Of a stretch of 64,000 bases of DNA, positions 1 through 54,357 are shown in pieces. A model generated the notes under the pieces. That model saw only the letters and a program-made list of their open reading frames with translations. It searched no databases and was not told the origin of the DNA. The stretch is taken from NCBI GenBank assembly GCA_964106645.2, contig OZ067041.1; one strand, given 5' to 3'. The position numbers and the translations under genes were made by a program. Each line of letters opens with the position of its first letter. Position 1 is the stretch's first letter. The DNA is from Podarcis pityusensis. Lineage: Eukaryota.

Positions 1-1849
1 TTTTATTTTATTTTTTACATTGCTGGCCTTATGGTTGTTGCATTGATTTGTATATTTGAATATACCAACTTAAGAATCTTCCCAGCTGAAATGTGGAATA
101 CCAACAATAACCACCTTCATGGCAAACATGTGCGCTTCAACCAGATCTTATTATTTTTATGATAAATGGTTTGTACATAATACAAGTAGTGCTTGATTTT
201 TATACAGGTAAATGTTTGTGAGATATATTAAGGTAATATTAACAGTGAAGTATAAAGCCTCACTGCTTGTTCCAGTGCAAAACTGAGTGGAAAAAGATTT
301 ATTCAGATAAAACTAAATAGATTTAGTTTCAAAATATTACTTCGATATATGTTTTTATATATTTGTAGATTGCCCTGATAATTGAACTTCTTGTTTCCAA
401 AACACCTCAGAACACTGGAATATTTTTGGTGCTTTTCTTTGTGGTTTATTCTTGCATTCACTACCTCTCCCCATTTTTATTTTTATTTTGGTTTTAAGTC
501 TTAAGGGAAGGAAATGCAGAAATGCCTTAAAGCATGGTGACAGTGGGCAGAATCAAAGCATAACATCCAGTCCATTTCAGATGGATTAGAATTCAACTCA
601 CAGCACCATAAAGTAGGCAGACATTTTCAGTATTTAGGGACATTCCTACAGTGCTCTGAAAACCCAACATGATTTTTGCTGTGATTTCAGAAAAGCAGTA
701 CTGCTGCTAAGCAGAAACACATTTCTCCAGTATGAACAATTACTAAATGAATATTGCAAAATTCCCAATTATGATCAATTATACAACTTGCACTTTGGAT
801 TTATGTTATCACAGTCAGTACAATTTGATGCAGGTATACGCAGAAGGAAATCCTAGTTACTCAGCTGCAATCCTACATACACTTACCTGGAAATAAGCTC
901 CAATGGATGCAATAGGTCTTACTTTACTGAGTAAAGAAGGATTGATCTGAAAGTAAAAATTGTCCTCCCGTTATCTATGGAAAAGTAAGGTAAGCTACCT
1001 TAGAGTAGTCTCCCAATCTTGGTTCTCTTGCTATCCCCCGCCCCATCCCCACAACCAGAAAATGTTTAATAAGATTAAATGTTAAATGAGCCAGAAAAGG
1101 GGGGTGGAATTGTCAAAAATTTTATATTTATTTTTAAAAATCACTCATTTTCTTGAACTGAGGAAGCAATATATTATTTTGAGCAGATGGGATGAACTGA
1201 TATTGCTCATTGGTAACAAACTAACAAGCAAAATGAACTGACAAATCACAAGCTTATCAGGCAAAGAAGCTGTATCCCTCTTTGAATGGGAAAGGGTGAC
1301 ACCTGGTGGTTGAATTCTATCAAGTTCCCTATTATAAGAAGAGGCCATTGTCAAGTCCGGCAGTGGTAGCTGGGGAAATTCTACTTGCTACACAGAAGTA
1401 GCAAATTGGAATATTCAGTTGTTGTTTTGATAATGATTTTTCTTAGAAGAATAAAAGTGGATTCAAGCTGAAATGGGATGTCTGTTCCAACCTCTGCTCA
1501 ACGGCACTACTTACTTACTCTGTCTTTGAAAGAAACCACTTACTAATAAATCTTTCCAAAACTTATGCAGACGATCTATTTTAACAAACTCCAAATGCAC
1601 TTTTTACAGTCACTTGCATTTAGCTAATGGGGAGGGGGAGGCTTCCCTATCTCAGGTTCTCAAATCTAGGATTATCTTATGTATATAAGGACATCATGAG
1701 ATTCACAAGGCAACTACAAATTTAAGATATACTCTAGGATCTACTCCTGCCCCAAACTTACATTTGTAGATACCTAATTCACTCCTTCTCACATCCTAAA
1801 CAATTTCATAAAGGTGTCTCTCACCATCCTATTGCCAAATTACTGATTA

Positions 1850-2580
1850 ATTAATTAATTTCTATCCCAGCTTTTCTCCGGAAGGAGCCCAGGTGGCAAA
1901 CACATCCACAATTCAAAAACAACACTATCAAAATATTCCAAAAACTATTACAACTGAAAACATCTAAAAGCAAATTTCAATTAAAAACAGTATTTCATCC
2001 GGTACTCTTTAGTCACTAAATGCCTGGGTAAAGAGGAATGTTTTCAAATTACTTCTGAAAGTTAAAAGTAATGGAGACAGATGCACCTCACTAGAGAGGG
2101 CATTCCATAAACAGGGAACCTCCTGCCAACCTAGCTGTTCAAAAGCACGCGGGAAGGTAAATGGCGTTTCCGTGCGCTCTGGTTTCCGTCACAGTGTTCC
2201 GTTGCACCAGAAGTGGTTTAGTCATGCTGGCCAGATGACCCGGAAAGCTGTCCGTAGACAAACACCAGCTCCCTTGGCCTGAAAGCAAGATGAGCGCCAC
2301 AACCCTAGTCGCCTTTGACTGGATTTAACCGTCCAGGGGTCCTTTACCTTTACCTTAAACAGGGAACCACCACTGAAAAGGCCCTATCGCCAGTTAACCC
2401 CAACTGGGCAGCTCCTGGTAAGAGCATTACCATCAAGTCCTCACCAGCCAATTCTAGGGACCTAGATGGTTGATATTAGGGAAGGTGCTCTCTTAGGAAC
2501 TTGGGTCCCATTTATATGCTCTGTATGCTAATACTAACACCCTGGATGCCAGTAGTTCACTGGTAGCCAGTGCAGTGCTT
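1850..2580 (-). mobile_element. Degraded L2-like LINE 3' end, interrupted by a Sauria SINE
   Basis: L2-type motifs (gagagggcattcca...accactgaaaaggccct) continue across the SINE insertion; boundaries approximate. Confidence 0.55.
2121..2355 (+). mobile_element. 5'-truncated Sauria SINE with 13-bp TSD
   Basis: cctgccaacctagc...aggggtcctttacctttacctt tail; TSD taaacagggaacc at 2108-2120 and 2356-2368. Confidence 0.85.
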
Positions 2581-2734
2581 GCACAATGATAATCTTCTAC
2601 TATCTTTCTTATGCATGATTTACATTGCAAAATTTGTAAATCCTGAAATCACCTTGATAGAGTATTTCTATCACTTAACTCAATTTCTTGCACACTGAAA
2701 AGACTCCACTCTATAATTCCTGGAATACTTAGCT

Positions 2735-3540
2735 CTCCGATATCTTTGTAGCCTTTGACATCATTGACCATGGTGTCCTAGAGAAACTCGAGGGAGGCAC
2801 TGTAATGGGATGGTCCTGCTCTTACCTGTAGGGTCCTTACTAGAAAGCAAGCAATCGTAAATAACGTTCTCAGCAATATAGCTTTTAAGCCAAGAGTCCA
2901 TTATGTCTCACTATTCAACATATGAAATTGCTAAGAGCTGTTATCCAGAGACATTATGTTGGTGACATACAGTTCCATCTCTCCATTTCATCTGAATCAG
3001 GGAAGACTGCGAAGGTGCTGAACTGGTATCTGAAAGCAGTGATGGGCTAGGTGGGAGTCACAAAACTGAGAGGTGCTGTAGGTGAGCAGTTCCTGCGTCT
3101 GGAAACCTGGCTCTGGTCATGGGCTGCATTCCCCTTGAAGAAATTCGTATATTTGTAGCCTGGAAATACAGTACTCCTGGATTCGAATCTGTCACTGGAA
3201 TCTGTCTGTGGCTAAGAGTGTTTAAGACCAGCTTAGGCCAGTTTGCAAGCTCAAGTCATCCCTGGCCCAAGATAGCCTGGTCTCAGTTGCCTATGCTTTG
3301 GGACCCTCATGTCTGGACTACTGTAATGCACTGCTGTAATATTGGATGCTGGAGGCTGAAGCTAGTGCAGAATTTGGCTGCTGGGTTGGTCAGTGGGGCA
3401 GTTCAATGGCACCATGAACCACCAATCCAAGGTGTTAGTACTAGCATACCAAGGCAGATGTGGGTTGGGACTCTAAAGGAGTGCTTTCCCCAATATCAAT
3501 AATCTCGGGCCCTTGCCTTGCCACTTGTAGGGTAATATCT
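2735..3540 (+). mobile_element. Degraded L2 LINE reverse-transcriptase remnant
   Basis: gcctttgacatcattgaccatggt reads as an AFD(T)IDHG RT motif; further remnants resembling LDYCNAL and KLVQNLAA; many frameshifts. Confidence 0.6.
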
Positions 3541-3827
3541 GGTATACACTCAGACTTTCAGCACATTGCTCTAATTCTGAGCCCTAGTTCATTCAGTATG
3601 GTGCCCCTTAGCAACCATGGACAGATACTTCCCTTATGAAGTGGCTGCTCCACATCAATACCTGATTGCATGAATCCCAATGGACACAAATTATCTCTCC
3701 CCCAGAAGAAACATGTGTACACTCATCAATATAGAACAGCAACTTCATATGTGAATTGAACAACATGGGGGTGGGGAGAGTGATGCCCACAGCTTCACCA
3801 TGTAAGAAGAGAAGCACTGCTGCTTAC

Positions 3828-3963
3828 CTTTATGGCTAAACTTAAAATCACAACAGATGGACAATTTCCAACTGATGCTGGCAACACATGCATGGTTTTG
3901 CGGTTGGTTAAAAGAAATTTATGAAGAGCAGTGGCGACCTGCCCCAAGTCAGAAGGAATTATC
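3828..3963 (-). other. CGGBP1: CGGBP1 5' leader exon (conserved part); 5' boundary uncertain, may extend to a candidate acceptor at 4314
   Basis: Strong minus-strand donor AAG|GTAAGC at 3828/3827. The minus-strand sequence (ataattccttctgacttggggcaggtcgccactgctctt ... gattttaagtttagccataaag) resembles my recollection of the human CGGBP1 5' UTR. Position divergent from ZNF654 matches known synteny. A polypyrimidine acceptor (ctttttcttttttcag) lies at ~4330-4315. Confidence 0.65.
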
Positions 3964-6483
3964 CTAACATCATGCCCTATCCTCTGCTGCACATGAGCAT
4001 TTTCAATCTCTCTTGCTCATTTGCCAGAAGAGCTCAGAAGAAGTACTCAGTAGATCACTTCATCAGTTGCCTGTGCATGCCCTAAATGTGGTCACTCAAG
4101 GTCACTTAACACAGATTAACAATGCATCTACATCATGTTGTCATAAATACAGTGGCTACCAAGAATTATTTCACCTCTTTCAATGTCTGCTTATGAGTGG
4201 AGTGAGAATTTTAATCTGTGTGAGTACAAAACTGGGAAATTACTCTATATGAATTAATCTGGTGGGTGCGATTTTGTGCAGACATAATAGTCCAGATGTA
4301 ATAAGAATGGTGAACTGAAAAAAGAAAAAGCTGCAAATGGTAGGAGAACTTTATCTAATGAGGGACTACACTGGTTCCTGGGTTAAAGCAAATGTCATAG
4401 AATGTCCTCATTATTATTATCTGAGGCATCCATTCCCAGATTTAGCAAGTGCACATTTGTGGAACAGTTCCTCCTCATGTGTGCCTGGAAGCCATATTTT
4501 CTGATTTGAAAGCCCTGTCCCAACTCCTGGATATTTGAGGGAGCTTGTGGTTACTTAACAGCAAGGGCAAACTGTTGTTTGCTGTATGAATTTAGTCCAC
4601 ACATTCTGTGGCTGAACCATGTGTGATCAAGGTGTTTGTGCTATAATGATACCACAAAGCTGGGTATAAAGGTGTTTGTTTTTTGATGGTGGATACTGAT
4701 ACGAGTTGCAACTGGGCAGCAGCTATAGGATAAGTACCTATAAAAACTGAGAATCTCTTATCTATTCCTTGTTATTGTTGTTGGTTTTTTTGTTTTGCAC
4801 CATGGGAATGGCACAATATGCTTTTTTTTAACATTGTAATCTGTGAGCTACGATGAGGCAGTGTATTTTTGTGATTCTGGTAGAAATCACTTGGATCTAT
4901 ATCTTAAACTGCATTTTCCATAATGATGCTGCTGTAGTGTAGAGCATTAGGTGAACTATTTCTTATGCTGTACTCTCAGTTATGCCTTGATGATGGATGG
5001 GACAGTGCAGGTGTGAAGAGTGTTTGAATTTAAGCCAAAGAGCAATCTTGTCTCAGACGTGCAACCATGCCCTGGACCTGTATTTTTGTGCCACAGCTTT
5101 GTCATAAAATGCTAGATTTTCATGTGTGCATGTGTGGGAGAGGGTTCCTTTAATTGTACAGCCTGTCAGTATAGGAGTGAACTATAATAAATGCTGGGTT
5201 TTACAGATCCAGCTGTAAAAATAGTATAGATTCATGAGAATCCATATGTGAGATTTCTATTTCTAAAACATGAAGTGCTGGAGATATTATTTCATGGCAT
5301 AATCTTGGGTCAAAAGGTTGAGCTGTCACCAGATTCATTTGGGTGTTCATCTGTAATAATAGCCATAATTTTGAAATTTAAAATATTATGGTCCTCTTCG
5401 CACCAACTGGTAAATACTATGAAAGGGTTAGTGAAAGAATCAGCTTTTCAGGTAAAATACAATTCACACATTTTCCTATTATCAATATTGTTATGAGAAC
5501 TAGATTAAAACAAAATGCACAGAATCTAGGCCAGACAATGCCTTAACGATTGTGAAAAGCCTGGAACCATAATAGTACTGAAGTCTCCAAGATAAGCCAA
5601 AACTAAGTGGACATCAATAAAACTGAAAGCTGCCCTGGGGAAAAAACTATAATCCAGACTAACGTATCTCACAGAGACTGTGCAAGAACAAATGAGCTCT
5701 CAGGAGGCAAAATATAGTATACATAGTGCAGAAGCCCCACTAAGTTCCCTACACCTTAACTCCCAGAGAAGTGTATATCGGATTACAGCTTTACAGTTCA
5801 AATTTAGGCATGTTACTGTTTACTTTGAAGTAATTTTACTTTGAAGTAATTCAACTACGCTCAACAGGGCTTACTCCAGGCATTAGTACTATAGGCATAG
5901 GACACTAGCACCTGAATCATGAAACCAGTCAGTGGGCAAGGACCTCATGCAAACGTTTCCAGAACTGGACCCATCAATAAACGCTCCATTATGATACCTC
6001 ACCAGGAACATGTTTTTTTGTTCTTCAGTGAATTTTACGCTACTACAGTGCCAAACTCTTTCTCAGTGGCTCTTTAGAGGTTCCCACATTATATTTCCCT
6101 GTGCAGATTTTTCTTCATCAGATACAACATTTATGTTCCACAATGGCTTCGTCTTAACGAGGAGCCCCAACGTGTGCCCCCCAACACACCTCCTTCCTGG
6201 CTCCCCCCCTTTACTCGCCGCTTCCAAATCTCAGGGGTTCTTTTTCCCTCGACAGAATTTCCTGCGCCCCCTGACCCGCCATTTCCCAACACCCCCCATC
6301 TTAGCCACCCCTTTCTCCATACAACCCAATGCTATGTCTCCCCACCCAGATGGGGAGGGGGAACCATTTCCCTCCCCCCCCCCGCCGCCCAACCTCCTTC
6401 TTACAGCTCTTGACAGCCGCCTGTTCTGTCCCCGGGGGGGGGGGGGTCCGGGGCTCAGCTTCGACCTGCTGCTCCGCGCTCAC

Positions 6484-6760
6484 CTTCCAGGTCCCGCGAC
6501 AGCGCGGAGCAGACTTGGCGGAGCCGCCTACCAGACAGATAGACAGACTGGAGGAGGAGGGAGGGGGGCGGTGAGGGCGGTTGCACAGAGTTGCTTCCTC
6601 TCTCCGGCTCAGCCCAAGCGGGGCGGGACTTACCCCCCCAGCAACACCGCCGCCAATCACGGCGTCGGAAAAAGGGAGAAAGCCCATGCGAGAGGAGGGA
6701 GGAGCGAACGGCGTTCCCTGCGCCTCGCGACGAAGAGAGTGGCAGGGGCTCGCGCCAGTC
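6484..6760 (-). other. CGGBP1: Probable alternative first (non-coding) exons of CGGBP1
   Basis: Two minus-strand donors inside the CpG island: GAAG|GTGAGC at 6484/6483 and GGG|GTAAGT at 6634/6633. Head-to-head arrangement with ZNF654 as in mammals. TSS not defined by sequence. Confidence 0.5.
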
Positions 6761-7203
6761 GCTGAGGAGAGGAGGCGGAAGTCGAGGGTGGAGGCCGCGG
6801 CCCACTCACAAGGGAGGAGGCGGAGATTGTTTACTTTGAAGGATGAAATACGGGCCCAATCGCCGAGGGCGTAGGAGGAGCTTAGGAGGGGGGAGGGGGT
6901 TGATCGATAGGGCCTCACGCCAATCAGAATGTGGGTCTGAAAGTTCAGCCGCGGATAGGGAGGTGCGTTTCCCAATCAGGAGCCGGAGAGCCGGAGCTGT
7001 GCCGAAATTAAACGGCCGGAGGGTCGGAGGTTGCGGGGGCCCGTGGCGGCTGATTGGCAAGCGAGCTCGCCAGTAAGGACGGCCCGTGGGGGGTGGTGCC
7101 GGAATTGAGGAACGCCGCGACAGGGGGCGGGCCATCCGGCGGATCGGGAGCACAGGGGAGGGGAGCTGGAGGAGCTCGGTACGCGCAGGGCGGCCGGAGC
7201 AGC

Positions 7204-7335
7204 ATGGCGGAAGACGAGAGCGATCAGGAGTCAGAGAGGCTCGGCGAGGAACTGGAGGCCATTGCCGGGCCGCGGCTTCCCACCGGCTTGTCCCCGGCCT
7301 TGAGCAGCCAGTATTATTGCTACCGCTTCTGCCAG
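7204..7335 (+). CDS. ZNF654: ZNF654 exon 1 (MAEDESDQESERLGEELEAI...YYCYRFCQ)
   Basis: agcATGG start; donor CAG|GTGAGG; 132 nt, phase 0. Confidence 0.93.
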
Positions 7336-8045
7336 GTGAGGCGCTGGCCCCGCCCCCTGGAGGCTGACACCTTGCGGGGTGGGGGTGGGCTGGGGAGGCG
7401 GACAGAAGGACAGGGGCGGCCGGGGAGGAAAAGCTGCTCGGCGTCGGGTCCCCTGCGGGTGGTTCTCTTGGAGGCGCTTCGCGGGGGCGGACCAACCGCC
7501 GGAGGGGGCGACGCTGAGGGCCCCTTTCTCGGCCAAAGCGAGGCGCCGTTCTCCGGGCCCCTGTTCGCTCCCCCCACCCCTCACGGGCGACGACCGGGCG
7601 CTTGGGAAGCTCCTTCATTTTCTCTCCCATTCCTCTAGTCTCCCCTCAGGTCAGTTTCTCCCCTCGGGAATAGCGAGGTTCACGGGCTCGTGGTTGGCCC
7701 TCCCTTCTTTTATTGTGAGAGGGAACAGTGATTTGTGTGGGGTGTCAACAGTGGAGCTCGGCCTGACCTTTTCATTCCCCCCCCCTCCCTTCCCGGCGCT
7801 GTCGCGGTGGGGGTGCTGGGGAGGAGGGAGGGAGGGAGGGAGGGGGCTTCTCTCCCCGCCCTCTCCGCCCGCCGGTCGGGCAGTTAGTTAGTTGCCAGGG
7901 TGGCGCGCGGGGGTCCCCGTGAGGTCAGGGCTTGGCGGAGGGGGTGCGAGTTGTTTGCAAGTGGTGAGGCAAAAAGGAGCAGGAGGAGACAGATAGGTTT
8001 GTTCTCCTCCGGGGAAAGTCTTTCCTGGCCTGTCCTTCCTATCTT

Positions 8046-19407: not shown

Positions 19408-19961
19408 GTACTGTTCAACACATTTTTGTGCTTAACAATATAGCTTAATGTTTTGATGATAATTGATATTTGATAATTGATATTATAGCAAAGTAGACAA
19501 ATGGTAAAACAAGGATGTTTTAAAATCAAATTCCTGCACTAAATATCAAACTTTGTACAGAATATAATTTCTGAAGAGCAATAGAAGCTGTTTCCATCCT
19601 AATGCTAGCATTGCACTACCCCTACTCCAGAACTGGATGTTCATAGTTGGTGTGATGGGGGCCATATAGAAGTAAATGGAGAGGTGAAATTGATGGGACC
19701 AAATTGCAAGCAGTTCCTGATGAGATCCATGTTTTCTCATGGCGTGGGGGGGAGTGAGTGAGAGAAAACGGTTTATAGTGTTAATTAATGTTATTTAAAA
19801 CATAAAACAGTTTTAAAACATGTTAGGCTGGAACAGTATTAATTGTTAGTCTTCTCAATGGAATCCCATAGCAGTGGCACTAAATTTCCTGCAACACTGG
19901 CAACCATGCTGCTGAAAGCTAGTGCCTTCTTTTGCTTGCGAGTTATTGAAATGCTGTATGT

Positions 19962-20322
19962 AAGGTTAAAGGTAAAGGACCCCTGGATGGTTAAGTCCAG
20001 TCAAATGCAACTATGGGGTACAGCCCTTATCTCACTTCGGGCTGAGGAAGCCGGCGTTTGTCTGCAGACATCTTTCCGTGCTATGTGGCCAGCATGACTA
20101 AACTGCTTCTGGTGCAATGGGACACCATGACGAGTGCCAGAGTGCATGGAAATGCCATTTACCTTCCCATCACAGTAGTACCTATTTATCTACACGTACT
20201 GCTATGTTTTTGAACTGCTAGGTTGGCAGAAGCTGGAACAGAACAACAGGAGTTCACCCCTCGCGCGGATTCAAACTGCCAACCTTCTGATTGGCAATCC
20301 CAAGAGACTCAGTGGTTTAGAC
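19962..20322 (-). mobile_element. Older near-full-length Sauria SINE
   Basis: aaggtaaaggacccc tail; conserved blocks gtggccagcatgact and tacctatttatctac. Confidence 0.85.
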
Positions 20323-22707: not shown

Positions 22708-24985
22708 GTTGGCAAAGAAGGCCTGCAGATTTGTGTAGAGATATGTGGAAGTGCTCTCCAGTTGGATCTCCGTGATGATCCAAAAATGAAGTGTCTGATA
22801 TATAAAACCATTGCTCACTTTTTGCCAAATGACTTGGAGATTGTCAGAATATGTGCTCTTTCTGTCTTTTTCCTTGAGCGCACCTTGGAATCATATAGCA
22901 CAGTTGAACATCTGTATAAATGTGCGGATGAAGAGTACAACGATCAAACCAGTTCTGTACAGAATCGTGTGCGTTTTGAGCTGCTTCCAATTTTGAAAAA
23001 GGGCTTGTTCTTTGATCCCGAGTTCTGGAATTTCTTGATGATCAAGCAGAACTGTTTAGCACTGCTAAAGGAGAAAGCATCTGTTGATTTGAATAAAACT
23101 ACGCCAGGGCATTCTTCTGCACATGTTTCAAAGACACGTCGAGGATTGCGTGGTGATCAAGCCTGTATAGCTGATGTAAACAACACAGAACTTGAGCATG
23201 ATAGCCCTTCTGGAGCACATGATAATTCCAAGAAAAACCATATAACTCTCAGCTCATCTAAAGTCGATCACAATGTACCAAGGCACCGTTGTGTGTTATG
23301 TAACAGGGAATTTCTTGGTGGTCACATTGTGAGGCATGCACAAGCTCATCAGAAAAAAGGCAGTTTTTCCTGTGTAATGTGTCGCAGGAAATTCAGGCAA
23401 AAAGGAATAATGCTCAAGCACTTAAAGAATCACATCAAGAAAATGGCAAGGCGTCACCTTGCTGTTACTTGTCATGATCAGGAAACCCCTAATGTAAATG
23501 AAATAAACTGTGCCGATACAGGTGTCGCAACTGAAAATGGGAAGTCGGAAAGCTGCAAAGACAGCAAAGTAGAGGTTGTCATCATACCGGATACAAATCA
23601 GGAGATGCAGAATTCTGAACTCCTATTTGATATAACTGAAAATCATGATAGTTGCCAGGGTACCATTATTGAAAATGGTAGTTGTGATAGCTGTTCAAAT
23701 AATACTCCTGAACCAGAAACCATGGGAGGATTTCCAGAAAGTGATAGCAACCTAAATAAAGAGTTGCCTGTACTTCATAAAGTAAATGGTGTGTTATGCC
23801 CTCAGAATGACTTTGACATTATGGACCAAGCAGGTAACTTCAAGTGTCCTGCTAATGGCTGTATTAGAGTCTTTAAAAAGATAAGATTTCTGAATAAACA
23901 TGCCCGGAAAGCTCACCCCTCTGATTTGAAGGTGCAAGAACACATAATGAAGTCTAATAAAGGAAAATGTCGCTTCTGTCAGAGAAAGTTTTTTGATTCT
24001 CAACATTTTATTGATCATCTAAAGCAGCATGTTTATCCAAATGTTTATTTTTGTTTACACTTTAACTGCAATCAGAGATTTAAGCTATCCACAGAACTTG
24101 CGGAGCATATAAAAAGCCACAGTGAGTTTAAAGCTCAGTGTAACTTTGCACAGTGCGGTAAACTTTTTGAAGATCTTTCGTTGCTGTATGAGCATGAAGC
24201 TCAGCATTATTCCAACAAAACTGGTCCTTTGGAAGAAGCTGATGAAAACATTTTTTCAGATACTACTTTGGAATCCCAGTGTAGCATCCAGGAAAAAGAG
24301 AGTAGTAATAGTAAAAAGGAGACTGTAATAGACTTGCCAGTTCCAACATGGAAAGCGAGGAAAGATTCTACAGAACCAAAGACTTACATTCAGAGTGAGA
24401 AGAAAATTAATAGTGTAATTCCAAATGGGAATGAAAATGCATGTGAAGGTACTGCTACAGTGGTGAACTTGATAGACCAAAAGATACCTGCGGTAGAGCC
24501 AAATTCAGAGAACTGTAATGTTACTGACCAACTAGTCAATGGGTATGGTGAACTGGAACAGACTTCTTCAGCATCCCTAGATACTGATTCAGAAAGTGTG
24601 ATTGACAAAACAAGGACAGAAAATGGATCCGTTCTGCCTGTTTTACAGAACTCTCCTGATACACCACCAAACAGTGTTGCTCAGTTGCCTTCCAAACCAA
24701 ATCTGATAACAGAAAATACTTCATATGGCTTAATTTTAACAAAGCCTTTTGTTAGACCATTGCCACCAAGTTACCTGGATGAGCGATACATTAGCATGCC
24801 AAAACGTAGAAAAACTTTGACTGAGAAAGTAGATACCCATTCAGAACAAGATAAAACTAGTAGCAAATCGGAAAGGTTAAGATGCAGCAAATGCCTGACC
24901 ACCTACTGTAACTCAGAAGCACTTGAGCTTCACCTTGCACAAAAGAAATGTCGGACACTCTTTGGATTCGATTCAGATGATGAAA
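22708..24985 (+). CDS. ZNF654: ZNF654 exon 8, large zinc-finger exon (6 C2H2 + terminal C2HC finger)
   Basis: ORF 22762-24996. Fingers start CVLC, CVMC, CPANGC, CRFC, CLHFNC, CNFAQC, CSKC. ccatag| acceptor; GAAA|GTAAGT donor; 2278 nt. Confidence 0.96.
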
Positions 24986-25308
24986 GTAAGTTTTGAAATA
25001 CTAGGTCCATGTATAGTTGTAAAAGCATTAGACAAGATACAGTGGAAACAAGCATGTGCCAGACAAATATTGAAAATGAGTGCGGTACATTTAAGGAGAA
25101 ATGAATCCAAAATGTTAGGGTAGATAGATGCAAGAAACAATTGAATATAAGCTGTCAGATTTAGAATATAGGCAAGCAAGTTAGTTTGAGTGCTTTTTTA
25201 AAGACAGTATTCCGTACTTGTTAAGTAGCTGAATTCCAGTATAAAACAAGAATAGAGAGTACCTCATTGTGTATACTGTAAACATAATAATGTAATATTT
25301 GTTCACAG

Positions 25309-31479: not shown

Positions 31480-32460
31480 GTTTTGCTGGCCGCACTAGCA
31501 CTGGGCCTAGAGAGCAGCCTTTTCCCTCAGCGCCCTTTCGTTGCGTATCACAGCAGACAGGCGGCAGCCACTCTCTTCCAACGGCCAAAACTTGGCTAAG
31601 GTATGCTTGGGGAGATCCCCCTTATTAGATGAGGCCTCAGAAGACAACGGAACCAATGCAGCCCCCTCCGCGTTCCAAGCCGAACCCGTTCAGGCCGCGC
31701 TCGCGTCGCGCGAAGCGTCGAGGGGGCGGGGCCGGAGGCTGCTCGCAGCAACACCCGAGCGGCGGAAGCACGTTGACCCTTGAGCCTGTCGGTTGCCAAG
31801 GTTTCCTGTGGCGGGGGGGGGGGAGAAGAGGGGGGGCGCTGGCGGCTTCGGGGGGGGGGGCTCTGCCTGCGCTCCTCACCTCGCGCCACCAAGAGGCGAC
31901 GCCGCCGCCGGCCGCCACCACCACCATGGCTTCGGCCTGGGCGGGGTTGACTGAGCGCGAGCGGGACGGCTGCCGGGAGCTCCTGGATCTTCTCCACACG
32001 GACGACCTGCTGTCGCTGACGGACACGGTGACTAACCGCCTCGTGCAGCCAGACGACCGCCAAGGTATTGGGGCGGGGGGGGGGGAGTACGCGGAAGGGG
32101 TCTGCGGACTTCAAGAGGGGTGGGGGGGAGTAGAAGTGGAGCCTTGTGGGTCTCACTCCGGAGCGGACTCTCATCTTCTAGCTTAGTCAATGCAGAGACT
32201 GTGGCCAGAAATGGGCGAAAGCGGGGCGGAGACCTTGAGTCCCTGTCAGGGGGAAAAGGCGAGGTTTCAGTAAACAAACAATAACAATAATCGCTTTTTC
32301 GAACATAAGCGCCTATAGAGAGCCTCGAGGGGAAATGTTCGAACCGAATGGAAAAACAATAATACTGCATAATTTTGGTATTTCTAAGAGACGGGGGGGG
32401 GGGGAGGAGAGGATGAGGACAAGAATGAACGATCGGGTTAGTATTTTGGAGTTTGTTTTT
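31480..32460 (+). promoter_or_regulatory. CpG-island promoter of C3orf38
   Basis: GC/CpG-rich; GGGGCGGGGC box at ~31723; GCGGAAG ETS-like site at ~31762; strong Kozak (gccaccaccaccATGG). Confidence 0.8.
31926..32064 (+). CDS. C3orf38: C3orf38 homolog exon 1 ([20 protein letters not shown]...[14 protein letters not shown])
   Basis: Kozak ATG at 31926; CAAG|GTATTG donor; matches recalled motif [10 protein letters not shown]; 139 nt. Confidence 0.92.
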
Positions 32461-37395: not shown

Positions 37396-38514
37396 GTGAG
37401 GTTTATTGTACATGTTTTATAAATTCAAAGCATTCTTTTTGGAAATTAGTTGCTTGTTCATGCTTTAATAAGTTGTTCACATTTGTCTTCTATGGAGGAG
37501 CAGGGGGCATATTCTTTCTGTTAGAAGTGTATCATGTGACAGCGTTTTTGTGCAACATAAGCATCGGACCTTCCTGTCTGTTCCTCACATGCTTTGAAGA
37601 TAGTAGAATAACAGGTGTCTAAATGAGAGAGGGTTCTGTGAGTGATTCCTACAGAAAGCAGGCCGATTTTGGAAGCCATATTCAGCACAACTGTTCTTTA
37701 GAGCAGAGATGGGGAACCTCTGACCATCTAGATGTCAAACCCCATTCATTCTCTGCAAGCTCCTACACATTTTTGAGGTGAGGCAACCAGAACCATAAAC
37801 AGTATTCGAAATGCACTCATGCCATAGATTTGCATCATGGCATTATTATATCAGCAGTTTTATTTTCAGTTCCTTCCTAATGATCCTTAGCATGGAATTT
37901 GATAAGAATTTACCTTTCTCACAGCTGCCACACACTGGGTCAGCATCTTCATTGAACTACCCAGAACTACTCCCAGGTTTTGTTCCAGGGTAGTCACTGC
38001 CAGTTCAGGCCCCATGAGTGTATATGTGAAATTAAGATGCATCCGTTTTCACTTGTTTATATTGATTTGCATTTGCCATTTTCCTGCTCATTCACTCAGT
38101 TTGGAGAGTACTATGTGTACATCTGATTTCCCCCTACTTCTTTTGCTGCCTTGAACATGGGGGAGGAGAGGAAGTAGAAGTCCTATTGTATGAAATCCAC
38201 TTCAGCATTTCATAGAACCCATGACTAATGAATGGTTCCTGTTTCCACAAAACAGAAATCTACAGAGGTTTTTTCTGCCTAATAAAGTGGATCCAAGTAA
38301 GCTGTCTATTCCACACATCTTTAGACAGCCCCTTCATTTGGTGTGCATAGTTCTGAACATTTTCAAAGCAGAAATTATGGCTGCATTAATTGTTGCATTC
38401 CATGTTAGTTGCAGTCGTAGGGTCCATTTCAACTTTGCTGAACAGTACCATGTGGAAAGGAATAAGTACATTTTGTTACTGCTTAAAAGTAAAAGTCCCT
38501 ACTTGGTTTTTCAG

Positions 38515-39108
38515 AAACCTGAAGAGGGAGGGAAGGAAGGAGGAGACAAGCAAGATCACAGCAAAGATTGCCACAGTCTGGGAGAGGAGTTTTGCCAGTG
38601 GTTCTTTGGAATTCTGAACTCTCAGAACCCGTTGGTTGGAGAACCACATGATGAATGGGGACCACAACATTTTTGGGATGATGTAATCCTAAAGTTTTGC
38701 TATAACACTTCAGAACAAAACATGGAAGAGTACTTGGGTGCAGAATTGGTTAGCCTTCGTTTACTGTCATTGGTGAAAGAAGAATACCTCTTCCTGAACC
38801 CGAACTTGGACGCTGGTGGGCTGAAGTGGACAGTTTCACGACATGGGTTAGTTGTGGTGGCAGTAGCAGGCACAGTTCATAGAAATACTTCTTGCTTGGG
38901 CATCTTTGAACAAATCTTTGGACTCATCCGATGCCCCTTTAGGGAGAATACGTGGAAAATCAAGTTTGTGAACCTAAAGATTGTTGGTCAGAATGCCATG
39001 GAACCTGGGACCCACTTAGAAAGACCTTGCATAAAATATGAGCAGGAAGAACTCCAGGAATTCTATGTTTCCAATGATCTTTCCTTGGTTGAGTCTCAAA
39101 AATCCTGA
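38515..39108 (+). CDS. C3orf38: C3orf38 homolog exon 3 ([10 protein letters not shown]...WGPQHFW...[23 protein letters not shown]); full protein 317 aa
   Basis: tttttcag| acceptor in frame with ORF 38221-39108; 594 nt including stop. Confidence 0.93.
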
Positions 39109-52033: not shown

Positions 52034-53043
52034 AGCAAGTGCCATATACTTGTCCATAAATAAATATGCTAAGATAGATATAGATATAGATATAGATATC
52101 ACTTAATCAACCCAAACCTCTAAATGGTTTGCATAAAACAACAGAACATATTCCAATAAAATAGAATATAGACAATATCAATAAAATCAAGTGCTATTAT
52201 TAGCAATAAATAAATAAAATCAGCCATTTTAAAACACACACACATAACATAAAATTCCATCTTAAAATTCCATGTCTGGGGAGATTGGTCTGCACAAAAG
52301 TTCTTAGGAGCCACAAACAATACAGTGAAAGCACCTAGCTAATATTAATGGCAATATTAGTATTGTGTTGTATCTGATAGCACTGAAACCAAAGATGATT
52401 ATAGCCTTCCAATTTACATACACACATCTATCTAAACAAACCTTTTCCTGTATATACAGGGTGGCATCTGAGGTCGTGCGAGTGGACTTCTGCTTATGCA
52501 ACAGCTCTTCCCCCCCTTTTCCTCCTGCAAAACCCCCACCCCATTACAATCTGTAGGTTTCTCATTATTTCTGTTAGTTTATTATTCTCTTGTATATTCA
52601 AGTTCGGACAAGCCATCCCGATTTCTTGTAATTAATTATGTATCCTGCTGAAATCCCACCAAATGCTTTCTAAAACGATTAAAAACAACACCATTTCTTG
52701 ATCTTGTTAGATGGTCATAAAATTAGCAATGCCATCTATATAGAGGTTAATTTAAAATATTGTTACTATTCTAATTATAATTGCATTTCCTCCGTCATTA
52801 CTAGGGGCCACTCAACAGATAAAGGGCAGCCTTTCCTTGTACTCTCTGAAATGGACTGTAGTCCACAAAAGGATATACAGTAAAAGATTTGCTCATCTTT
52901 TAAGATGTCACAAGAATCTTTGCTGAAATCAAATTTTTGTGGCAATTGCTGTAATTAAAATGCAAGAAAACACGAATTTCAGAAGCCGAAAAAGAAGAGA
53001 GCAAGAACAACACCACCACCACCACCCTCCTTTGTCTCCAAAA

Positions 53044-53394
53044 AAGGTAAAGGGACCCCTGACCATTAGGTCCAGTCATGATCGACTCTGGGGTTGCAGC
53101 GCTCATCTCGCTTTATTGGCCGAGGGAGCCGGCGTACAGCTTCCGGGTCATGTGGCCAGCATGACTAAGCCGCTTCTGGCGAACCAGAGCAGCGCACGGA
53201 AACGTCGTTTACCTTCCCGCTGGAGCGGTACCTATTTATCTACTTGCACTTTGATGTGCTTTCGAACTGCTAGATTGGCAGGAGCAGGGACCAAGCAACG
53301 GGAGCTCACCCCGTTGCGGGTATTTGAACCGCCGACCTTCTGATTGGTAAGTCCTAGGCTTTGTGGTTTAACCCACAGTGCCATCCGCGTCCCT
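53044..53394 (-). mobile_element. Full-length Sauria SINE (POM-like)
   Basis: tRNA-like head gggacgcggatggcactgtgggttaaacc; ACCTTT tail; 13-bp TSD tttgtctccaaaa at 53031 and 53395. Confidence 0.93.
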
Positions 53395-54204
53395 TTTGTC
53401 TCCAAAAGGAACCCCAAATAAAGATGTCTTGCAGCGTGAGATTTAAAGCTTTAATTGCTCATGTGCTGTTAGCAGTAAGAGTGATGCTGGAAAGATTAGA
53501 AAGTAGCAATTGCAGTTAAACCACCTGGATTTCCAAGCCAGGCTAAAAAAAAAGATACAATTTACAGCACCAAAAAGTAATGAAGAACTCTAATACAGGA
53601 GAAGCCTACATGACACCCTCCAGATGTTATTGGACTACAATTCCCATCAGCCACAGCCAACATGGCCAATGTTCAGGGATTTGGGGAGTTTTTGACCACA
53701 ACATCTGGACCATGTCATATTGCTCTAATAGAACCAGCAGCAAGGTGTTTCCCCTTCTCAACTTTCAGTTGTCGATTATTTAACACCGCCTCCATCTAAT
53801 AACTGAGCTGAACTTAAAAGCATCACAAGAAAGATGTCCCATCTGCAAATGGTTTAAATTGCTCTGCTAGCAAGCATTCCATTGACTCCCCAGAAACGGG
53901 AAGGTTGGATACCTATCTAAAATGGCCTGGGCAGTCAATGCATCCATGATGGTTTCTTTTTTTAAGGAGACAGCTATGCCAAGCTACCACTTAGCATAAA
54001 TAAAATGAGTTCACACACCAATATATTTTATCTAAAAGGGACAGGCTGCATTTTTCTATAAATAAAAATGAAATGGCCATGCTTTTGATTCATTAGATCC
54101 TCTCAAGTCATCTAAGATTAGTTAAGGCTGCAGTGACTGTGTCACAGTATAAACCTATGCATATGCCCTCAGAAACAAACCCCACTGAGTTCAGTGGGGC
54201 CTAA

Positions 54205-54357
54205 AGGTAAAGGGACCCCGGACCATTAGGTCCAGTCGTGACTAACTCTGGGGTTGCGGCGCTCACCTTGCTTTATTGGCCGAGGGAGCCGGTGTACAGC
54301 TTCTGGGTCATGTGGCCAGCATGACTAAGCCGCTACTGGCGAACCAGAGCAGCACAC
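54205..54357 (-). mobile_element. 5'-truncated Sauria SINE
   Basis: Matches ~53044-53198; TSD gggcctaa at 54197 and 54358. Confidence 0.9.

Follow-up and report, generated by a model that had tools for sequence, protein, structure and literature searches.

An open reading frame within an intron of the presumed CGGBP1 leader of Podarcis pityusensis: a candidate, usually skipped cassette exon

The window analysed in this study is a stretch of 64,000 nucleotides from Podarcis pityusensis (assembly GCA_964106645.2, contig OZ067041.1), in which domain searches identify two plus-strand landmarks: a large ZNF654-like exon with a TPR_Rlf domain and C2H2 fingers (22786..24996, TPR_Rlf E 6e-43), and a DUF4518 exon that serves as a synteny marker (38221..39108, E 3e-65). 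I take the TPR_Rlf/C2H2 gene to be ZNF654, and the DUF4518 gene is presumably C3orf38. On the plus strand, the ZNF654-like gene probably begins its first exon at ATG 7204, head to head with the leader of a minus-strand transcript. Since no CGGBP1 coding sequence was recognised within the 64-kb window, it is by synteny only that I infer the minus-strand transcript to be that of CGGBP1, which I assume to lie head to head with ZNF654. The putative ZNF654-like first exon (7204-7338) begins about 520 nt from an ATG at 6687 on the opposite strand, a spacing that would suit one bidirectional promoter in a CpG island serving both. A candidate for a distal first exon of the minus-strand gene lies at 31880-31927 on the minus strand, within the DUF4518 gene's CpG island, where a donor-like site is preceded by an ATG (16 codons).

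Splicing of the leader was assessed with Logan contigs: of 20 sequencing runs listed, 14 are putative RNA runs by the search tool's guess, and the contigs of four of these were aligned to positions 1-8000. The four runs represent two related species and not the window's own sample, and contigs lose rare splice forms; the statements below concern 15 joints and 32 aligned pieces, beyond which the alignments comprise a further 8 joints and 6417 pieces. Joints were observed between 946 and 6394 in run X1 (depth 7.6), between 946 and 6405 in X5 (depth 26.9) and between 944 and 6403 in X13 (depth 26.8), two of the three with CT..AC ends, as a minus-strand GT-AG intron should show. Three of the four runs thus connect 6394 or 6403-6405 directly to 944-946, and everything in between, including 3828-3963, is removed as an intron. 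The downstream partner is a 60-nt exon at 887..946 (minus strand) in which the phase-0 frame alone is open. If 946-887 is exonic, contigs should end with 30-base overlaps, and such ends are found at 916 (X6 and X13) and at 917 (X5). Splice support for this exon comes from all four runs: X1, X5 and X13 contribute joints, and X6 contributes its contig end at 916. It is 887-946, and not 3828-3963, that is supported as an internal leader exon. In X5 and X6 exon 946-887 is covered more deeply than can be accounted for by the joints listed within 1-8000; a feeder exon beyond that region would fit this excess.

The upstream partner is a leader exon at 6394..6547 on the minus strand, with donors 6404 and 6393 joined to 946 and a predicted acceptor at 6548. 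Three alternative donors, 6483, 6404 and 6393, follow this strong acceptor, and the use of 6404 and 6393 in different runs delivers different frames to the next exon. Further upstream, a candidate first exon at 6634..6687 on the minus strand, read from the sequence in a bin (6676-6942) without contig cover, has its own ATG (6687) followed by 18 codons to a phase-0 donor at 6633; if the next intron were retained, the frame would extend to 98 codons at the used donor 6393, and both routes would enter exon 946-887 in frame. The skipped intron contains a high-copy short repeat at 2149-2357 (with other copies at 19961-20168, 53043-53220 and 54202-54339) and an inverted pair at 2456-2578 and 3398-3513 (about 124 nt, 70% identity), both situated between 3828-3963 and exon 946-887. 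For region 3751-4100 a second copy was not found in the window.

Within this intron, the first-pass annotation had singled out an ATG in good context that opens 22 codons and ends in phase 0 at a strong donor. All of these elements are present on the minus strand (3828..3893): the ATG at 3893-3891 is followed by 22 stop-free codons ending at donor 3828/3827, and the donor-like site AAG|GTAAGC (3822..3830) matches the consensus at 8 of 9 positions, a level of agreement (at least 8 of 9) reached by only 6 sites on the minus strand of 1-7000, this one included. The Kozak context of the ATG (A at -3, C at +4) is adequate but falls short of the optimum. As claimed, the frame is also open upstream of the ATG, as far as 4016, giving a total length of 63 codons that is matched at 0.8% of local intronic positions; left unspliced, the ATG 3893 frame would run for 32 codons to a stop at 3797. 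The 22-codon peptide is indeed hydrophobic, with a mean Kyte-Doolittle value of 1.3 and a best 19-residue window of 1.78. An AUG-initiated frame upstream of the main open reading frame is thus given by ATG 3893, the CGGBP1 coding sequence being placed by inference outside the window. However, 5 of the 22 AG|GTRAG donors in the window, 3828 among them, are preceded by an ATG that has a purine at -3 and opens 15-40 stop-free codons into the donor, and the ATG-to-donor pattern at 3893-3828 alone is therefore no more than what is expected by chance.

Joining ATG 3893-donor 3828 to exon 946-887 in silico gives a frame that stays open for at least 42 codons, as the phase of donor 3828 matches the sole open frame of that exon. 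This in-frame fit is a weak argument, because stretches of 20 codons are open by chance at 30% of local positions. Of the predicted exon chains, 6 out of 30 are open, which is about the level of chance.

The contigs speak against the routine inclusion of 3828-3963 as a leader exon: among the joints and pieces listed, three of the four related-species runs splice past it and none of the four includes it. The next spliced exon, which the first-pass annotation had proposed to look for in RNA-seq, turns out to be 946-887 joined to 6405 or 6394, bypassing the segment altogether. Contig ends that would be expected for the donor (3857) or for the acceptors (3848 and 3934) are absent among the pieces listed, so that neither the joints nor the contig ends listed mark the donor-like site or either acceptor as used. 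One contig of X5 (record 20, 3607-4265) runs unbroken across donor 3828, another of X6 (record 29, 3595-3893) is likewise continuous over it, and the depth over 3739-4005 (2.7-11) is close to that of neighbouring intron bins. Run X13 has no cover at 3827-4011, a gap that filters or low depth can produce and to which I give no weight. In the bulk leader of the related-species samples 3828-3963 is skipped, as judged from the joints and pieces listed; rare forms are lost from contigs. A rare or tissue-specific inclusion in the leader may still occur.

Inclusion of the ATG needs an acceptor at its upstream side, and the TAG implied by the proposed boundary (3964..3966, minus strand) is poor: its tract has 5 pyrimidines in 17 positions, another AG lies 13 nt upstream, and 96% of the 209 local YAG sites equal or exceed it in pyrimidine content. 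A better-looking candidate on the minus strand is the 3' splice region at 3878..3913, identified by motif counts, which has a branch-point-like TTTTAAC at 3913-3907, an AG-free zone of 61 nt and a CAG ending at 3878. With 9 pyrimidines in 17 positions its tract is average, and 1.4% of the 209 local YAG sites combine the branch-point-like and AG-free features as well as it does. Splicing at 3878 would yield a 50-nt exon (3877-3828) and would leave ATG 3893 in the intron; use of this acceptor was not seen among the contig joints and ends listed. Immediately upstream of the branch-point-like motif, a 7-bp hairpin at 3925-3945 (minus strand) occurs in both the minimum-energy and the centroid fold. 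The folding of 3800-3980 as a whole is no better than that of shuffled sequences (z-score 0.56), and Rfam gives 11 matches at E<=1 on 1-8000, none of which lies in the region of 3828-3963 or comes near its gathering score.

Searches for relatives were negative within their scope. With the 45-codon frame that spans the segment, no candidate protein of 24-79 residues was found, and at 80-2000 residues none of the 11 candidates reached E<=10; the ESM Atlas gave no usable match for the 45- or the 63-residue frame, and for the 6394-6687 frame none of 1338 candidates among longer proteins reached E<=1. Motif scans for vertebrate orthologues returned 11 metagenome loci with unrelated flanks, none of them aligning to the window, and a further scan returned one viral locus. 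Neither at the DNA nor at the protein level did these protein searches and motif scans find a vertebrate orthologue of 3828-3963. The X6 contig that crosses the donor (record 29) has two gap letters, fitting a 2-nt insertion listed at 3710, and 3828-3893 is without apparent indel in this one related species, as would be expected anyway at about 3% divergence.

In human, a coding upstream frame of CGGBP1 has been described. The CGGBP1 uORF c3riboseqorf98 is listed as a tier 1B candidate with two HLA peptides and Ribo-seq evidence, and GENCODE already classes it as protein-coding on account of its evolutionary profile (PMC13275300, Nature 2026, accessible text). In substance this is the claim of the first-pass annotation, an upstream reading frame in the CGGBP1 leader that is judged coding from its evolutionary profile, and the idea that CGGBP1 is bicistronic through a conserved coding uORF is plausible and, being in print for human (PMC13275300, same text), not new. 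The two frames differ in that the human one is supported by Ribo-seq and HLA peptides, whereas the 3828-3893 frame is skipped in the contigs examined. The frame of ATG 6687, as read from the letters, is another candidate counterpart of the human uORF. A GENCODE roadmap preprint mentions ten uORF annotations of this kind, listed in its Table S6, while its main text, as far as available, does not name CGGBP1 (bioRxiv 10.1101/2021.06.10.447896). Two uORFs covered there, HRURF and that of ATXN1, resemble the present frame as short AUG-initiated frames in multi-exon 5' leaders, and for ATXN1 the translational control is tied to alternative splicing of the 5' UTR; both are supported by PhyloCSF and Ribo-seq (bioRxiv 10.1101/2021.06.10.447896, available part). 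CGGBP1 itself is amniote-specific and derived from a hAT transposase, and the accessible portions of the two papers that cover this origin contain nothing on its leader (PMC8097297, PMC9004415). The literature search found nothing on a CGGBP1 uORF or microprotein beyond PMC13275300; a term search of PMC11419116 gave no mention.

An altogether different origin is suggested by the 45-codon frame itself (3828..3962, minus strand), which carries a weak two-repeat pattern resembling leucine-rich repeats (LRRs) and could be the relic exon of an older LRR gene, kept by the transposon-derived CGGBP1 in its leader; I regard this as very improbable. A phmmer search with the 3962-3828 frame retrieves 311 proteins at E<=0.001 from 1.84 billion. 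Yet the 150 of the 311 that were listed are long, each being matched in several stretches, and the low E-values arise by adding up many weak repeat matches: among these 150 fetched proteins no stretch by itself scores above 17.3 bits, and the independent E in PDB is 5.9. Four of six scanned matches are LRR proteins and the other two are repeat proteins of other kinds. In PDB, 39 sequences match at E<=10 (best 1e-9), plant LRR receptors and SHOC2 making up most of them, while five control frames (four of six randomly drawn ones plus the runner-up frame) together give a single match, at E 0.078. From 1930 repeat pairs of the fetched proteins a two-repeat profile was built, which gives the frame 11.2 bits, the best of 4875 windows and a value reached by 1 in 100,000 shuffles, and a profile from the least query-like third of the repeats still gives 7.8 bits, with 34 in 100,000 shuffles as good. 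However, both profiles derive from proteins picked by the same query, the less biased one gives the next frame 6.5 bits, and Pfam returns no LRR family (E<=1 for the 45 residues, E<=0.1 for the 63). Scaled to some 25,000 families, the shuffle rates predict roughly 0.25-8 matches by chance; the resemblance is insignificant across all families and is a lead, not a finding.

Like the 24-residue LRRs of plant/bacterial type (Pfam LRR_1 and LRR_8; the receptor kinases GSO1 and ERL1) and like SHOC2, the frame agrees over two consecutive repeats at the hydrophobic, Pro and Gly positions; in contrast to them it has two repeats only, a spacing of 25 residues and no intact Asn ladder, both conserved Asn positions being shifted or missing. 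Thus the hydrophobic positions of the LxxLxLxxN core fit two repeats and the Asn positions do not, at a level attained by 1-34 per 100,000 shuffles. Unlike LRR_1 and LRR_8 proteins, the frame is without a Pfam match and without further LRR exons nearby: no other LRR-like frame exceeds 4.3 bits in the window's six frames, and no solenoid-capable array of several repeats was found there. The fuller scenario, in which a lost LRR gene would have left this two-repeat remnant when the hAT-derived CGGBP1 took over its promoter and exons, and in which the remnant would survive as an alternatively spliced, translated microprotein exon and be the origin of the human coding uORF, is highly improbable. 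Nearer at hand is the 50-nt exon 3877-3828 as the real cassette, with ATG 3893 intronic between branch point and acceptor; any conservation would then reflect splice signals, or a reading frame begun in an earlier exon. I consider this somewhat unlikely. The branch-point-like motif, the AG-free zone and the CAG at 3878 argue for it, as does the poverty of the competing 3964 acceptor, and two predicted chains from ATG 6687 through 3877-3828 remain open to 887; against this, the pyrimidine tract is only average, the contigs listed do not show the acceptor in use, and open chains are no more frequent than chance. It is unlikely, too, that the segment is a chance intronic reading frame beside a cryptic donor that never enters mature mRNA, the human match, on which the first-pass annotation had relied, being faulty. 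The five similar donors among 22, the intron-like depth with contigs crossing unbroken, and the absence of a Pfam family, an Rfam family and an unusual fold agree with such an origin, which would nevertheless have to account for the coincidence of a good donor, a branch-point-like motif and a long open frame, for 3828-3962 being the best LRR-like frame of the 4875 overlapping stop-free windows, and for the constrained coding uORF that the human CGGBP1 leader does carry (PMC13275300, accessible text). From the 50-nt exon as from the chance frame it follows that no 22-codon microprotein is made.

The reading I tentatively prefer, as a possibility rather than a probability, is that the CGGBP1 leader has at 3828-3963 a minor cassette exon which is usually skipped and which, when included, would add an uORF. 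It is favoured because the donor is among the six best, the 42-codon join is open and the 63-codon frame is rare, and further supported because human CGGBP1 has a coding uORF (PMC13275300, accessible text). It is weakened because no inclusion is seen among the joints and pieces listed for the four runs, the pattern is common (5 of 22 donors) and the 3964 acceptor is poor, and also because no protein relative, short or long, was found and the phmmer matches are repeat proteins only. For the cassette exon to act as proposed, the intron that related animals splice from the minus-strand leader would have to belong to a transcript of CGGBP1, the exon within it would at times be included and its frame translated, and the 3828-3893 frame would correspond to the human c3riboseqorf98. 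Upon inclusion, scanning ribosomes would start at 3893 and make a short hydrophobic peptide. An uORF commonly acts by lowering the arrival of ribosomes at the main start; with fewer ribosomes reaching it, the splicing choice could tune the output of CGGBP1.

If 3828-3893 is not a counterpart of the human uORF, it would be an ordinary intronic reading frame. If it is, the published annotation would simply be extended to another vertebrate, with the one small addition that the related species, as far as examined, mostly seem to leave the exon out. Of wider interest would be the LRR relic alone, which, if true, would reveal the source of the leader of a transposon-derived gene and of a conserved microprotein.
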